Part shown: one piece after another, positions 4,522 through 63,858 of the stretch
Position numbering within the stretch: position 1 is the first letter of the stretch
Layout of the letters: each line of letters opens with the position of its first letter
Assembly (NCBI GenBank): GCA_036397815.1
Contig: DASWIE010000030.1
Span: forward strand, 3,272-67,271
Direction: 5' to 3'
DNA: 64,000 bases
DNA from: Candidatus Limnocylindria bacterium
GTDB lineage: Bacteria; Chloroflexota; Limnocylindria; QHBO01
Notes under the pieces: model-generated
What the model saw: the letters and a program-made list of their open reading frames with translations, nothing else
What the model was told of the DNA's origin: nothing
Databases searched by the model: none
Program-made: the position numbers and the translations under genes

Positions 4522-4536
4522 CCCACCCATCGGTCC
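4522..4536 (+). repeat. Copy A of the dispersed intergenic motif CCCACCCATCGGTCC (core CCCATCGGTCC), 76 nt upstream of rpoC
   Basis: Exact 11-nt core shared with copies at about 9062 (reverse complement), 55636 and 63848. Confidence 0.55.
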
Positions 4537-4612
4537 ATTGCCTGCCGGGGCCTGGTCAGCCCTGGCGTCCCGAGCCAGATGCGGCGTCAGCCGCAGGAGT
4601 CGTAAGCCGCTC

Positions 4613-7600
4613 ATGCTGGAAGTCAACAACTTCGACGCGATCCGGATCAGCCTCGCGTCGCCCGATCAGATCAAGGGGTGGTCGTCGGGCGAGGTGACGA
4701 AGCCGGAGACGATCAACTACCGCACGCTCAAGCCGGAGAAGGACGGTCTCTTCGACGAGCGCATCTTCGGACCCACCAAGGACTGGGAGTGCTACTGCGG
4801 CAAGTACAAGCGCATCCGCTACAAGGGCATCATCTGCGACAAGTGTGGCGTGGAGGTCACGCGGTCGAAGGTGCGCCGCGAGCGGATGGGGCACATCAAG
4901 CTGGCCAGCCCGGTCAGCCACATCTGGTACTTCAAGGGCACGCCATCGCGGCTGGGGATCCTGCTCGACATCAGCCCGCGCAACCTGGAGCGGATCCTCT
5001 ACTTCGCCCTCTACGTCGTGACCCGCGTCGACGACGCGGAGCGTGAGAAGGCGCTGGCCCGGATCGACGAGGAGATGGGGGAGCGGATCGCCCGCGCCCA
5101 GGGCGTGGTCGAGGAGAAGCGCGGCGAGCTCGAGGCGGCCGTCGCCGACAAGCGCGCCGAGGTGGAGGCCGCCTTCGAGGCCGACCTGCGCCGCCACGAC
5201 GAGCGCTTCGCGGGCCGCTCGGAGGAGCTGGCCAGTGCCGCGCAGGCGGTCGAGGCCGGCCTGAAGGGCACCCGCAAGCCGGTGGCGGAGGAGATCGTCT
5301 TCACGCCCACCGGCGAGGTGGTCGCCAAGCCGGGCGACGCCCCGAAGGACGCGCTGGCGGCGCTGCGCAAGGCGGTGCAGGACGAGGTCGCCTCCGTCGA
5401 CGCCGACGTCAAGCAGGCCAAGGCCGAGGCCAAGGAGCGGCTGGATGGCGCGCTCGCCGACCTGACCTCCGGGATCGACAGCGCCCTTGCCACCGAGCGC
5501 GAGGGGGTCGCCCGCGAGACCGATGACGCCAAGCTGGCGGCCCGCGCCGCCAGGCAGCAGGTCACCGACATCAAGGTGATGCAGACCCTCACCGAGTCGG
5601 AGTACCGCAACCTGACCGACCAGTACGGCCGGCTCTTCGACGCCGGGATGGGCGCCGAGGCGGTCAAGCGCATCATCGAGGCGCTGGACCTGGACGAGCT
5701 CGCCCAGCGGCTGCACGTCGAGATGCGCCAGACCTCCGGTCAGCGGCGCAAGAAGGCGATCAAGCGGCTGCGCCTGATCGAGGCCTTCCGCAAGTCGGGG
5801 GCCCGCCCGGAGTGGATGATCCTGTCGACCCTGCCGGTGATCCCGCCGGACCTGCGCCCGATGGTGCAGCTCGACGGCGGCCGCTTCGCCACCTCCGACC
5901 TCAATGACCTCTACCGGCGGGTCATCAACCGCAACAACCGGCTGTCGCGGCTGCTCGACCTCGAGGCGCCCGAGATCATCATCCGCAACGAGAAGCGGAT
6001 GCTGCAGGAGGCATGCGACGCGCTGATCGACAACGGCCGCCGCGGGCGCGCGATCGCGGGCACCGGCAACCATCGGCTCAAGAGCCTGTCCGACATGCTG
6101 AAGGGCAAGCAGGGCCGCTTCCGCCAGAATCTGCTCGGCAAGCGGGTCGACTACTCCGGCCGCTCGGTCATCGTGGTCGGCCCGGAGCTGAAGCTGCACC
6201 AGTGCGGCCTGCCGAAGAAGATGGCGCTCGAGCTGTTCAAGCCGTTCGTCATGCGGCAGCTGGTCGAGAAGGGCTTCGCCCACAACATCAAGAGCGCCAA
6301 GCGGATCGTGGAGCGCGTGCGTCCCGAGGTATGGGACGTGCTGGAGGAGGTCATCAAGGACCACCCCGTGCTCCTGAACCGCGCCCCGACGCTGCACCGG
6401 CTCGGGATCCAGGCCTTCATGCCGGTCCTGGTCGAGGGGTCCGCGATCCAGATCCACCCGCTCGTCTGCTTCGCCTTCAACGCCGACTTCGACGGCGACC
6501 AGATGGCGGTCCACGTGCCGCTCTCGACCGCCGCCCAGAAGGAAGCCAAGGAGCTGATGCTCTCGACGCAGAACCTGCTGTCGGCGGCCGACGGTTCGCC
6601 GGTGGTGTCACCCACCCACGACATGGTGCTGGGCTGCTACTACCTGACCGTCGAGGCGCCGGACGAGAAGGGCGCCGGCAAGGTCTTCTCCAGCGCGGAC
6701 GAGGCGATGATGGCGGCCCAGCTGGGCTACGTTCACGTCCAGGCGCCGGTGCGGGTCGAGCTCTCGATCCGCGAGACCGGCGAGGGCACGGACGGCGACG
6801 CGCCGGCCCAGCCCCAGCTGGTCGAGACGACCCCGGGGAGGGTGATCTTCAACACGGTCATCCCCGAGGAGCTCGGCTACATCAACCGCGTGATGGACCG
6901 CAAGGGCCTGAAGGCGCTGATCGCGCAGTGCTACCGGGAGCTGGGGCCGGCGGCCACCACGCGACTGGTGGATGGCATCAAGACCCTGGGCTTCCACTAC
7001 GCCACGGTGGCGGGCATCACGATCGGGATCGACGACATCCGCGTCCCGAAGGAGAAGGTCGCGCTGCTGGCCAAGGCCGATGGTCGGGTGACCGATATCG
7101 ACCGCGAGTTCCGCAAGGGCTTCATCACCGAGGATGAGCGCTACAACCAGACGGTTGACGTCTGGCGCGAAACGACCGATGCGGTCACCAAGAAGATGCT
7201 CGACGGGCTGGACCAGCGTGGTTCGGTCTGGATGATCACGCACTCCGGCGCGCGCGGAAACGTGACGCAGGTCCACCAGCTGGCGGGCATGCGTGGCCTG
7301 ATGGCCGACCCCTCGGGCCGGATCATCGACCTGCCCATCCGCAGCAACCTGCGCGAGGGGATGAGCGTGCTCGAGTACTTCATCTCGAGCCACGGCGCCC
7401 GCAAGGGACTGGCCGACACCGCGCTGCGCACGGCCGACTCCGGGTACCTGACCCGTCGCCTGGTGGACGTGGCGCAGGACGTCATCACCCGCGAGGACGA
7501 CTGCGCGACCAGCGTCGGGACGTGGATCACCCGCGACGAGTCGCAGCAGATCCCCGAGCCATTCGTGGATCGGCTGATCGGTCGCATGGCGGCCCTCGAC

Positions 7601-9040
7601 GTGGTCGACGAGAAGACGGGTGACGTGGTGGTGGCTGCCAACGCGGAGATCGACGAGATCGCGATCGAGCGCATCGACGCGCTCGGCCTCGACCGCGTCA
7701 GCGTGCGCTCGCCGCTCACCTGCGCGGCGCGTCACGGCGTGTGCCGGATGTGCTATGGCCGCAACCTGGCCACCGGCCGCCTGGTCGAGCTGGGACAGGC
7801 GGTGGGGATCATCGCCGCCCAGTCGATCGGCGAGCCGGGCACGCAGCTCACGATGCGGACCTTCCACACCGGCGGCGTCGCCGGGGAGGACATCACCCAG
7901 GGCCTGCCGCGCGTCGAGGAGCTGTTCGAGGCGCGCATCCCCAAGGGCCAGGCGACCATGACCGAGATCGACGGCGTCGTCGAAGTCGTGCGCGCCGGGC
8001 AGGATCAGCCGGTCACGGTGCGGGTGACGCACCGCGAGGCCTACGACACGCCGATCAAGCTCACCCCGCAGCACGAGGTGCTGGTCGCCTCCGGTGACGA
8101 GGTCGCCGAAGCCCAGCTGCTCGCTCGCCTGGGTGAGGGCGACGAGGTGGTCGAGGTCAAGGCGCCGTCGGCCGGGCGCGTCACCAAGAAGGGCAACACC
8201 CTGACCCTCCACTCGGAGGACGTCGACACGCGCGAGTACGCCGTGCCGCACTCGGCGCGCATCCGCGTCGAGACCGGCGACGACGTGCTCGCCGGCGACC
8301 CGCTGACCGAGGGCTCGCTCAACCCGAAGGACCTGCTGCTGATCAAGGGCGTGGACACCGTCCAGCGATTCCTGGTGGCGGAGGTTCAGAAGGTGTACCG
8401 CTCACAGGGCGTGACGATCGCCGACAAGCACGTCGAGATCATCGTGCGCCAGATGCTGCGCAAGGTGACCGTCGACTCGGCCGGCGACACCGAGCTGCTG
8501 CCATCCGAGCTGATCGATCGCTTCGAGTTCGAGGAGGTCAACAACCGGATCCTGGCCGAGGGCGGTGAGCCGGCGACGGCGCAGACCGTGCTGCTTGGCG
8601 TGACCAAGGCCAGCCTGAACACGAGCTCCTTCCTGGCTGCCGCATCCTTCCAGGAGACGACCCGGGTGCTGACCGAGGCGGCGATCAACGGCGCCAAGGA
8701 CCACCTGCTGGGCCTGAAGGAGAACGTGATCATCGGCAAGCTGATCCCGGCCGGGACCGGCGCCGAGGCGCGTGCCCTGGCCGCCGCGCGAGCCCGCGAG
8801 CTCCCGCCGGAGGAGGCGGAGGCGCTTCGCGAGCGCGAGGCGGCGATGACCTTCCTCACCGGTGAGGCCGATGCCGACCGCGATGGGGTCATCGAGCCCG
8901 ACGAGGCCGAGGCGGCCGCCGAGGAGGCGGCCGAGACCGTGGCCGAGCTGATGGGCGCCGATGACGACCCCGCCATCGAGGCGGAGGTCGAAGAGGAGGT
9001 CTTCGACGGCCTGAGCGAGGGGGCGGCGGCAAAGAAGTAG
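4613..9040 (+). CDS. rpoC: DNA-directed RNA polymerase subunit beta-prime, carrying a lineage-specific coiled-coil insertion of about 185 aa
   Basis: The Zn-finger [37 protein letters not shown], and trigger-loop/bridge regions are conserved. The start was chosen at ATG 4613 ([23 protein letters not shown]), preceded by AGGAG; the track ORF begins upstream at 4538. Confidence 0.95.
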
Positions 9041-63151: not shown

Positions 63152-63819
63152 CGAGCGACGCCCGTGGGCGCGCCCATCGCGCGATCGGCGACCTCGCGAA
63201 TCCTGTCACCCAGCTCGCCACCTGGCGTATCGACCAGCTCCTGCGGATTCGCCGTCGCCATGACGGCGGCCAGGTATCGCTGCCGGGCACGCGCCACCGT
63301 CCGCAGGCTCGACCCGGTTGGCATCCCCAGGATCGTCTCCACGTCGATCGGATCGAAACGTTCGACCGTCGAGGCCACGAGCGCGGCGCGGGGCACGATG
63401 GGCAGCGCGGCAAGCCCGTCGAAGACGGGGTCCGCAGCTCCCAGGCCGCGCAGGGCCGCACGCCGCTCGCGATCCCATGGACCGGCACGCGGCCGAGATC
63501 CACGGCGGAGCCGGCGAAGGACGCGGGCCCGCAGCCAGGCGGCGGCCCGCTCGGGATGCCGCAGCTCGGCGGAGCGCCGGACTCCCTCCTCGAGTGCCCC
63601 GGTGGCGGCCCTCGCCGCGCGCGGCCGGTCGCCAAGCGAGACGAGCAGCGCGAATCCGTGCAGCCGCGCGCCGTGGATGTCACGGAACGCGGCGCGGCGC
63701 AGGGTCGGTTCGCGCAGATCGAGCGGTGGCGGTGGGGCGCGCGTGATGGGTCCTCCGGTGGGGAGCGGTGCGGTGCGGCCGGGTCAGCCGTGTGGAGTGT
63801 AGAACCCGCGTCCAGCCAT
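63148..63819 (-). CDS. ECF (sigma-70 family) sigma factor whose reading frame is interrupted by an in-frame TGA 11 codons after an RBS-preceded ATG; possible pseudogene or readthrough
   Basis: Manual translation of the minus strand gives region 2 (..FRDIHGARLHGFALLVSLGD...HPERAAAWLRARVLRRLRR) and region 4 (LAALP..PRAALVASTVERFDPIDVETILGMPTGSSLRTVARARQ). GGGAGG-N10-ATG at 63819 is followed by MAGRGFYTPHG-TGA(63786..63784), then the sigma domains in frame. No ATG/GTG/TTG occurs in the next 129 codons, so the track shows only the 82-aa tail ORF 63148..63396. Confidence 0.5.
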
Positions 63820-63847
63820 GGGCGACCCGCCTCCCGGTCGCCTGGCA

Positions 63848-63858
63848 CCCATCGGTCC
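63848..63858 (+). repeat. Copy D of the dispersed motif core CCCATCGGTCC, in the divergent region between the ECF sigma gene and a downstream + strand gene
   Basis: Exact 11-nt core. It lies 29 nt upstream of the sigma ATG on the opposite strand and about 97 nt upstream of the ATG at 63955. Confidence 0.5.

Follow-up and report, generated by a model that had tools for sequence, protein, structure and literature searches.

What reads a short sequence that recurs, letter for letter, between the core genes for transcription and translation in a Candidatus Limnocylindria genome, and is the repetition more than accident? Limnocylindria are an abundant class of soil and freshwater bacteria; we know of no work on their gene regulation and of no cultured model, and a motif of very high information content under purifying selection is a concrete handle on that regulation, usable as a probe sequence, as a landmark for metatranscriptome 5' and 3' ends and as a subclade marker. 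A first-pass annotation of a 64-kb stretch of this DNA, here called the window, had proposed that the motif is a functional element, and the window and the corresponding loci of related genomes were analyzed with this proposal in mind.

A conserved intergenic motif

The exact 11-mer CCCATCGGTCC occurs four times in the 64-kb window, at 4526-4536 (+), 9062-9072 (-), 55636-55646 (+) and 63848-63858 (+), where dinucleotide shuffles gave 0.17 copies on average and at most 2, none of 100 reaching four. All four lie in non-coding DNA, as the annotation had claimed, a placement with a probability of <1e-4 by chance, the true intergenic share of the window being estimated from open reading frame and GC3 analyses at <10%. 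Exact copies are spaced at about 1 per 16 kb, with none in the coding DNA that makes up >90% of the window, and one is present in about a quarter to a third of the true intergenic regions; the six one-mismatch matches to the 11-mer fall in called-coding stretches or show coding-like GC3 periodicity. The motif has an asymmetric core, CCATCGGTCC / CATCGGTC, is usually seen as CCCATCGGTCCA and reaches up to 16 nt; a single motif is not palindromic. The 5' extensions described earlier were confirmed on reading the sequence, and the 16-mer CCCACCCATCGGTCCA is identical in copy 1 (4522-4537) and copy 2 (55632-55647). Only 11 to 16 nt are common to the copies, and the adjoining hairpins differ in sequence.

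Three of the four copies (copies 1, 2 and 4) are kept at orthologous sites in five to six lineages against diverging flanks and are under purifying selection at the sequence level, across RpoC identities of roughly 82 to 95% and, for copy 2, GlyRS identities of 85 to 91%. In the relatives' loci CCATCGGTC was found 13 times in 10.2 kb of intergenic DNA and 9 times in 138.5 kb of coding DNA, an intergenic density about 20 times higher, and the commonest intergenic 8- to 10-mers are words of the motif. The annotation had named two ways in which its proposal could fail, an 11-mer common in coding and non-coding DNA alike at a compositional level and copies without conservation in relatives; instead, non-coding enrichment is strong and conservation holds at three of four orthologous intergenic sites. 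Near letter-for-letter conservation in spacers of the core transcription and translation genes establishes the motif as a real, selectively maintained signal, not a product of chance, and the central claim of a functional element is borne out by the non-random count, the non-coding enrichment and the orthologous conservation.

The signal is lineage specific, belonging to one subclade of Candidatus Limnocylindria (Chloroflexota): it is present at RpoC identities of at least 82% and absent at 80%. Five lineages have copy 1 together with copy 4, and L217/L218 have neither. Relatives have additional sites between the S10 and L3 genes, between nusG and rplK and upstream of rpoB, as well as lineage-specific copies; a sense copy is also found in a gene pair of L033, and conservation extends to the antisense copies 3' of rpoC and nusG. 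The motif is often 1 to 90 nt 3' of a stop codon, relatives included, and a GC-rich hairpin adjoins its 5' side at eight of nine site classes, as judged by eye and partly by folding. Inverted pairs, with spacers of 12 to 16 nt, occur at 3 of about 12 site classes (the rpoC 3' side in L212 and upstream of rpoB in L211 and L215).

The two copies flanking rpoC

Copy 1 (CCCACCCATCGGTCCA, 4522-4537, plus strand) lies between rpoB and rpoC in the sense orientation relative to rpoC, 76 nt 5' of the rpoC ATG at 4613, in agreement with the distance first reported. The form CCATCGGTCCAT is identical at this site in the window, L210, L211, L212-215 and L094 (five lineages); the version in a sixth, L216, is CCAATCGGTCCA, with one change. 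Two predicted hairpins enclose the copy. The first, GCGGCGCC-gagaa-GGCGCCGC (4499-4519, plus strand), follows the rpoB stop and ends 2 nt before copy 1, and its stem sequence varies between lineages while the hairpin itself is kept. The second, GCCGGGG-CCTGGTCA-GCCCTGGC (4544-4566, plus strand), has the half-word GGTCA in its loop, 22 nt past the GGTCC in copy 1; its stem and its C(C/T)(T/C)GGTC(A/C) loop are conserved in six lineages, the differences being limited to G-C to G-U changes and A-C mismatches, with no double compensatory change.

Copy 4 (9061-9076, minus strand; TGGACCGATGGGCGGG on the plus strand) lies 21 nt past the rpoC stop in antisense orientation to that gene. The inverted copies do flank rpoC, as the annotation had it, and the arrangement is kept across the clade. 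The GGGCGGG part of copy 4 runs into a hairpin (stem 9074-9080 with 9089-9095). In L210, L211, L212 and L094, GACCGATG lies directly 3' of the rpoC stop beside hairpins that differ in sequence, and it remains with rpoC even where three to five genes have been inserted before rpsL. The rpoC-rpsL spacer is repeat-rich and insertion-prone. Conservation is asymmetric: the left arm, GACCGATG, is kept in five lineages and the complementary right arm decays; the sequence itself is selected, not pairing alone. A small hairpin at 9039-9055 (minus strand), overlapping the rpoC stop and 5 nt after copy 4 in motif orientation, is terminator-like in having a minus-strand T-rich tail, and a scan around copy 4 showed no minus-strand promoter. 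In the search for intrinsic terminators, hairpins were present without a sense-strand T-run, the only match being on the minus strand at 9055-9039; the motif as a U-tract terminator was rejected, since its GC-rich hairpins have no U-tract on the sense strand.

The glyQS and dnaG copies

Copy 2 (CCCACCCATCGGTCCA, 55632-55647, plus strand) follows by 6 nt the hexamer TAGACT (55620-55625, plus strand; TG at -14/-15), which is probably the -10 box of the glyQS operon; copy 2 would then cover about +1 to +16 of the transcript. TAGACT is invariant in five lineages and the sequence upstream of it diverges; a consensus promoter scan that requires a -35 element gave no match at glyQS. The block GCTAGACTCG..CC....CATCGGT(C)CAACATC is conserved here in the window, L205, L207, L208 and L209. 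On reading the sequence, a degenerate second unit, CATCTGGTGCA (55649-55659, plus strand), starts 11 nt after CATCGGTCCA (55638), and the L209 site is a clean tandem, CATCGGTCAACATCGGTC. Half-words recur at helical-phase spacing at three sites: 11 nt in glyQS, +22 nt from copy 1 and, read in motif orientation, 21 nt before copy 4. The glyQS operon also encodes an HTH_17 "excisionase family" DNA-binding protein (58415-58858, plus strand; Pfam PF12728, E=2e-7), whose gene has the same operon position in L124, L205 and L207-L209 and which has 692 homologues, the top matches being 70 to 98% identical.

Copy 3 (CACCCATCGGTCCG, 63846-63859, plus strand) lies between two divergent genes. The one downstream, left unnamed by the annotation, is dnaG by synteny with relatives; the minus-strand gene, labeled an ECF sigma factor, gave no Pfam match, and that label was not upheld. 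This copy is weakly conserved and decaying, with one mismatch in L205, four in L207 and none of the motif left in L208 and L209. It is upstream of both putative divergent promoters, some 24 to 25 nt before a TGgTAAAAT extended -10. Relative to promoters, copy 2 stands 6 nt after the putative -10 and copy 3 about 25 nt before an extended -10; copies 1 and 4 have no recognizable promoter nearby.

How the motif may be read

Three candidates had been offered for the element. An operator is the leading candidate, a promoter-associated element fits only the glyQS copy, and a miniature repeat in the mobile-element sense is unsupported because only 11 to 16 nt are common to the copies. Our preferred reading, with a probability of about 0.35, is that a DNA-binding protein uses the motif as an operator or a roadblock site; the protein nature of the reader, its action on DNA and its identity are all inferred. 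A sequence-specific protein would read the motif as double-stranded DNA. At glyQS it would sit on +1 to +16, as on a repressor-type operator, with the weaker second unit one helical turn off; in the rpoB-rpoC spacer and on the rpoC 3' side it might act as a roadblock or insulator beside the native hairpins. The motif stands at the borders of core units of gene expression (rpoB|rpoC, the rpoC 3' end, the glyQS start and dnaG); read by a protein, it would define a regulon comprising the core expression machinery. By inference only, a candidate reader is the conserved HTH_17 protein, whose gene belongs to an operon that the motif itself fronts.

The intergenic excess and the orthologous conservation are as expected of an operator, as are the asymmetric conservation of copy 4, the helically phased half-words, the fixed 6 nt between copy 2 and its invariant -10-like hexamer, which is a classic operator position, and the highly conserved DNA-binding protein of the glyQS operon. 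Both orientations on the transcribed strand are conserved (copy 1 sense, copy 4 antisense), which fits recognition of double-stranded DNA readily and a single RNA-binding protein poorly, and gain and loss of sites between lineages resemble binding-site turnover. Against this reading, of the three sites with the strongest conservation, two (the rpoB|rpoC spacer and the rpoC 3' end) do not coincide with a recognizable promoter; 16-nt identity between non-orthologous sites exceeds what is usual for operators; the share of intergenic regions with a copy is high for a single regulon; the frequent 5' GC-rich hairpin is not predicted by a plain operator model; and the variable spacers of the three inverted pairs suggest hairpins rather than a dimeric protein site. 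CIRCE (HrcA) and NrdR boxes are likewise near-exact short non-coding sequences, conserved at orthologous sites across a clade and sometimes overlapping the transcription start, but they are palindromic or tandem with fixed spacing and located at promoters, whereas this motif is asymmetric, lies after stops and between cistrons, and has inverted pairs with variable spacers.

A second reading, possible but tentative, is a module of RNA-RNA pairing, in which the sense leader and intercistronic copies (rpoC, glyQS and, in L212, L3) would base-pair with the antisense copy that immediately precedes the rpoC terminator hairpin. In cis, pairing could bring about 5'-3' closure or form an RNase III site bracketing rpoC; in trans, a 3'-UTR-derived small RNA with the seed GACCGAUG(GG) could couple expression of beta-prime, GlyRS and ribosomal proteins. 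The invariant core of copies 1 and 2, CAUCGGUC, is the exact complement of that after rpoC, GACCGAUG, and near-perfect identity between sites is typical of a base-pairing constraint. Copy 4 has a seed-then-terminator layout, stays attached to rpoC whatever gene comes next and keeps its seed while the hairpin sequence changes; the shared presence and absence of copies 1 and 4 and the two hairpins enclosing copy 1 also fit. Yet the core is invariant, with no compensatory change, and in L216, where both partners have changed, complementarity is down to 6 nt; wobble-type changes are absent among the substitutions at the edges. The supposed seed lies within a long palindromic stem in L212 and L216, the predicted unpaired probability of the core (0.1 to 0.7) is not distinctive, the sense copies are 32 to 98 nt from start codons without overlapping a ribosome-binding site, and copy 3 precedes both putative divergent promoters. 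In 3'-UTR-derived small RNAs such as CpxQ a short conserved seed similarly stands directly before the terminator hairpin of the parent gene, and other leaders have conserved words complementary to it; the present motif differs in its lack of covariation, in a seed buried in a stem in two lineages and in targets far from ribosome-binding sites. It is doubtful that the complementary 9- to 16-nt words bracketing the rpoC message (sense in the leader, antisense before the terminator), with the leader word shared by glyQS and in some lineages by L3, amount to a new circuit, whether a 3'-UTR small RNA or 5'-3' closure of the beta-prime mRNA, that coordinates RNA polymerase, an aminoacyl-tRNA synthetase and ribosomal proteins; if they did, the autoregulation of beta-prime would be unusual.

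We consider it unlikely that the copies belong to a REP/REPIN-like or terminator-associated dispersed repeat, a palindrome of about 35 nt (GACCGATGGGCG-loop-CGCCCATCGGTC) seeding in extragenic DNA by stop codons, of which single copies would be half-units and some would have been co-opted later, for example for mRNA 3'-end stabilization or attenuation. As in RAYT-associated REP/REPIN elements, the motif is restricted to extragenic DNA, in both orientations, by stop codons and between cistrons; its three inverted doublets form hairpins, other copies are associated with hairpins, identical and over-represented 16-mers stand at unrelated sites, and the rpoC-rpsL spacer has the repeat-rich character already described. 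The imperfect-palindrome unit with at least 20 to 35 nt shared that defines such elements is lacking, however: single copies are non-palindromic, and the 11 to 16 nt in common beside unrelated hairpins, all different, indicate that the motif copies are not copies of one element. Copies 1, 2 and 4 are, moreover, under purifying selection at orthologous sites, and copy 4 keeps one arm only.

Less probable still is that a protein binds the motif in single-stranded RNA, as a nut/boxA-like site or an autoregulatory operator that functions in the sense orientation only and beside a hairpin, with the antisense copies either acting on minus-strand transcripts or unrelated. Sense copies are found in the transcribed leaders or spacers of rpoC, glyQS, L3 and the L033 gene pair, between or beside hairpins, and the minus-strand hairpin with its T-rich tail after copy 4 would suit such a site. 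No minus-strand promoter was seen in the scan there, however, and the copies that follow rpoC and nusG in antisense orientation are conserved in their own right. Rfam covariance models, including T-box, ribosomal protein leader and Chloroflexi-1 families, gave no match at gathering thresholds, the sole match at E<=5 being a spurious lncRNA. boxA/nut sites and the lineage-specific, conserved terminator-region motif TRIT of M. tuberculosis resemble the motif in that a conserved word adjoins a hairpin whose sequence varies, in the leaders and spacers of transcription and translation operons, but the motif has no U-tract and occurs in both orientations, and identity with boxA was rejected on direct reading, its sequence differing from the GYUCUUUAACA-like consensus.

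A DNA uptake sequence favoring uptake of same-species DNA is very improbable: like the Neisseria DUS and Pasteurellaceae USS the motif has an exact, non-palindromic 10- to 12-mer core with weaker flanks, terminator association, occasional inverted pairs, conservation across related species and clade-level variants, but it is about 15 times sparser than the known cases (about 1 per kb, coding DNA included), is missing in exact form from the coding DNA of the window, and as a 10-mer is not enriched in coding DNA over k-mers of the same composition (2 observed, mean 0.68, rank 571 of 7560).

One weaker occurrence had been placed near 9231, and it was located at 9229-9240 on the minus strand (CTGGTCCGATGG, two mismatches), 7 nt before a GCCAC-N5-GTGGC hairpin.

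RESULTS

Four exact intergenic copies of the motif. The 11-mer CCCATCGGTCC occurs exactly at 4526 (+), 9062 (-), 55636 (+), and 63848 (+) in the 64-kb window, compared with a mean of 0.17 copies in dinucleotide-preserving shuffles, none of 100 of which reached four. All four copies lie in true intergenic DNA, which makes up less than 10% of this ribosomal-protein-rich window, and on both grounds the four intergenic copies reported in the first-pass annotation are confirmed as being far beyond chance. Matches with one mismatch fall within called coding stretches or stretches with coding-like GC3 periodicity. 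As read from the sequence, the copies in the rpoB-rpoC spacer (4522-4537, +) and at the start of glyQS (55632-55647, +) share the 16-mer CCCACCCATCGGTCCA at 16 of 16 nucleotides, and those upstream of dnaG (63846-63859, +; CACCCATCGGTCCG) and after the rpoC stop (9061-9076, -; CCCGCCCATCGGTCCA) depart from it at their edges only; a weak copy at 9229-9240 has two mismatches.

Loci compared. By homology, GlyRS and RpoC assign the window to Candidatus Limnocylindria (Chloroflexota), and its RpoC is 100% identical to a protein encoded on a contig of a metagenome-assembled genome. Orthologous loci from related genomes were retrieved through exact-protein look-ups, with the exception of L094 (RpoC 82% identical to that of the window), which was found by chance in a scan of a genome collection for CCCRCCCATCGGTCC; the scan matched at least 119 loci, and among the matches listed nearly all were chance hits in the coding DNA of unrelated phyla, L094 being the useful one. 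Three loci (L120, L121, and L124) are of the same species as the window, and L123 encodes an identical S12 protein downstream of a diverged region. GlyRS identity to the window was 91% for L205 and L206, 89% for L207, 85% for L208, and 87% for L209; RpoC identity was 95% for L210, 90% for L211, 88% for L212 to L215, 84% for L216, and 80% for L217 and L218. A metagenome scan with RpoC gave a closest identity of 66%, and the motif was not found there.

Conservation at orthologous sites. The rpoB-rpoC spacer is about 120 nt long and contains CCATCGGTCCAT unchanged in the window, L210, L211, L212 to L215, and L094; L216 has CCAATCGGTCCA in its place, and the spacer of L217 and L218 is just 7 nt long, without the motif. 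The hairpin after the rpoB stop persists across lineages while varying in sequence, and a second hairpin 3' of the motif has a likewise conserved loop, C(C/T)(T/C)GGTC(A/C). Beyond rpoC, the word (T/A)G(G/A)ACCGATGGG(C/T)GGG lies 1 to 29 nt past the stop in the window, L210, L211, and L212, and L094 keeps AGACCGATG ahead of a 12-bp hairpin that differs from the others. The word remains attached to rpoC also in lineages with an insertion of three to five genes before rpsL. L212 has a complete inverted pair here, GACCGATGGGCG-12 nt-CGCCCATCGTC; in the other lineages the left arm is intact and the right arm has decayed, and therefore selection acts on the sequence itself, not on pairing alone.

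At glyQS, the block GCTAGACTCG..CC....CATCGGT(C)CAACATC is kept in five lineages, and the sequence 5' of TAGACT diverges throughout. A degenerate second unit, CATCTGGTGCA, begins 11 nt after CATCGGTCCA, and L209 has a clean tandem, CATCGGTCAACATCGGTC. We infer most simply that TAGACT, with TG upstream, is the -10 box of glyQS, an assignment that is provisional because the consensus scan requires a -35 element and found no such promoter here; with TAGACT taken as the -10 box, the motif would occupy about +1 to +16 of the transcript. The copy upstream of dnaG decays: L205 has a single mismatch and L207 has four, and the copy is missing from L208 and L209.

Enrichment in intergenic DNA. Relatives carry additional, nonorthologous copies: the same 16-mer directly 3' of a hairpin in the S10/L3 spacer of L212 to L215, G(A)ACCGATGGCGGCC running into a hairpin at the 3' end of nusG in L211 and L212, a copy at the 3' end of recO in L205, an inverted pair 5' of rpoB in each of L211 and L215, and an intercistronic copy in L033. 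In the loci of seven relatives, the 9-mer CCATCGGTC was counted 13 times over 10.2 kb of intergenic sequence and 9 times over 138.5 kb of coding sequence, counts that are not independent because the loci are partly orthologous and that represent about 12 distinct site classes. The commonest intergenic 8-, 9-, and 10-mers of these loci are subwords of the motif. Within coding DNA the 10-mer does not stand out, with 2 occurrences where k-mers of equal composition average 0.68. What looked like a tandem in L066, CATCGGTCCATCTGTCGGTCCAT, proved to be coding and was rejected. The earlier suggestion of a functional element is thus supported both by this noncoding enrichment and by purifying selection at the rpoB-rpoC, rpoC 3', and glyQS sites: the motif is a clade-specific recognition sequence, maintained by selection, in noncoding DNA bordering core expression genes.

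Surroundings and orientation. Read in the orientation of the motif, a GC-rich hairpin ends 0 to 6 nt 5' of it or overlaps CCCRCCC in 8 of 9 site classes, a count read from the sequence and, for part of the classes, from folds. The adjoining hairpins are unrelated in sequence, and the glyQS copy is the exception that has none on its 5' side. The rpoB-rpoC and rpoC 3' copies have a second hairpin 5 to 6 nt downstream, which for the latter is a minus-strand structure with a T-rich tail. The transcribed strand carries the motif in either orientation, sense copies lying mostly 32 to 108 nt upstream of starts and antisense copies just past stops; a rule of sense copies at 5' ends and antisense copies at 3' ends suits most sites, fails at nusG/rplK, and was set aside, there being too few independent sites.

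DISCUSSION

Searches of Rfam at gathering and permissive thresholds gave no relevant family match, and a literature search on the motif word and on Limnocylindria intergenic features returned only primers and an unrelated genome architecture paper. We favor recognition by a DNA-binding protein, with a probability of roughly one in three, because the transcribed strand has conserved copies in both orientations, the copy past rpoC has only one conserved arm, auxiliary half-words are found at distances of 11, 22, and 21 nt, and the glyQS copy is in an operator position, fixed 6 nt past the putative -10 box. A natural candidate for the reader would be the HTH_17 protein encoded in the glyQS operon. 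Counting against the DNA-binding model are two conserved sites away from promoters, the unusually high identity across 16 nt, inverted pairs with variable spacers, and the hairpin association, which the model leaves unexplained.

The main rival, which we consider somewhat less probable, is RNA pairing of the leader copies with the antisense copy ahead of the rpoC terminator. Pairing would explain why the invariant cores, CAUCGGUC and GACCGAUG, complement each other exactly, and it accounts for the seed-then-terminator layout and the joint presence or absence of both rpoC copies, but covariation is lacking and complementarity is lost in L216. When the rpoB-rpoC spacer was folded as a consensus, hairpins were predicted but the surroundings of the motif showed no double compensatory changes, and the unpaired probability of the core in a base-pair probability computation (0.1 to 0.7) is not diagnostic. 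The motif is of moderate interest, which would be greater if pairing were true. Somewhat more doubtful still is a co-opted REP-like repeat, which explains the doublets, the stop-codon-adjacent positions, and the identical 16-mers but fails to explain the short shared length and the purifying selection.

Other identities were ruled out: a canonical intrinsic terminator, since there is no U-tract; boxA, by sequence; a DNA uptake sequence, given the low density and absence of coding-DNA enrichment; and a copy-and-paste mobile element or classical REP, as only 11 to 16 nt are shared and the neighboring hairpins all differ. DnaA boxes, IHF sites, sigma-54 or ECF promoters, T-box or tRNA 3'-end mimicry, a 5S loop-E mimic, CsrA sites, a small ORF from the ATG within GACCGATGG, and invertase or att sites were dropped as misfits in sequence or geometry.

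Additional features of the loci. The gene for the HTH_17 ("excisionase family") DNA-binding protein (58415-58858; about 130 amino acids) keeps the same place in the glyQS operon, with a TPR protein gene before it and a GNAT protein gene after it; its product has 692 homologues, the top hits being 70 to 98% identical, a degree of conservation that is unusual for a protein of this kind. Within about 50 nt 5' of dnaG (63874-63925; L205 19320-19400; also L207, L208, and L209) lie three TTGACA(A) words, the first followed by a TGnTA(A/G)AAT extended -10 and slightly variable (TTGACT in L207), the two nearest dnaG kept in all relatives; they may be a repeated operator or else boxA-like halves. The minus-strand genes at 63148-63747, taken in the first-pass annotation for an ECF sigma factor, and 62459-63151 had no Pfam match, and a minus-strand -10-like TACACT near 63800 is kept in L205 and L207. 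The motif-like TACCATCGGC 5' of glmU and rplJ is not a copy: it comprises the -10 box and discriminator of promoters (50578-50612; L211 2735-2765; L212 1985-2012) of the form TTGACC/TTGCCG, 17 to 18 nt, TACCAT, then CGGC, a form suggesting that this lineage has ordinary promoters of the sigma-70 type whose discriminator is GC rich.

The rpoC-rpsL spacer is hypervariable (window 9100-9265; L094 161-354; L211 14541-14771; L210 14509-19048; L212 14528-18748). It holds three GCCAC-N5-GTGGC palindromes spaced exactly 72 nt apart in the window, an unrelated 72-nt tandem repeat (2.7 copies; 96%) in L094, a 103-nt repeat in L211, and three to five unrelated genes in L210, L212, and L217. The rpoB and rpsL leaders (947-1007 and 9309-9375) begin alike after TATACT (CC.C.TTCG(C)GTGTCC(C)GC); a 25-nt unit is repeated 2.2 times in the rpsL leader, and the rpoB leader also has CCCCACCATGCCTTCC, which loosely resembles the motif. 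In L205 (6927-10000), three tad pilus genes (tadE, tadE, and tad) are inserted between recO and glyQS, with a motif copy on either side in inverted orientation, one at 7016 (-) and the other at 9941 (+). Neither the insertion nor the left copy is present in the window or in L207 to L209. Finally, the S14/S8 spacer of the window (20361-20460) has a hairpin, GGCCGCC-gcgcg-GGCGGCC, followed by a degenerate motif-like tail, CCCATCAGCGG, and the S10/L3 spacer of L216 has a similar hairpin followed by CCCATCCGCCATCG.
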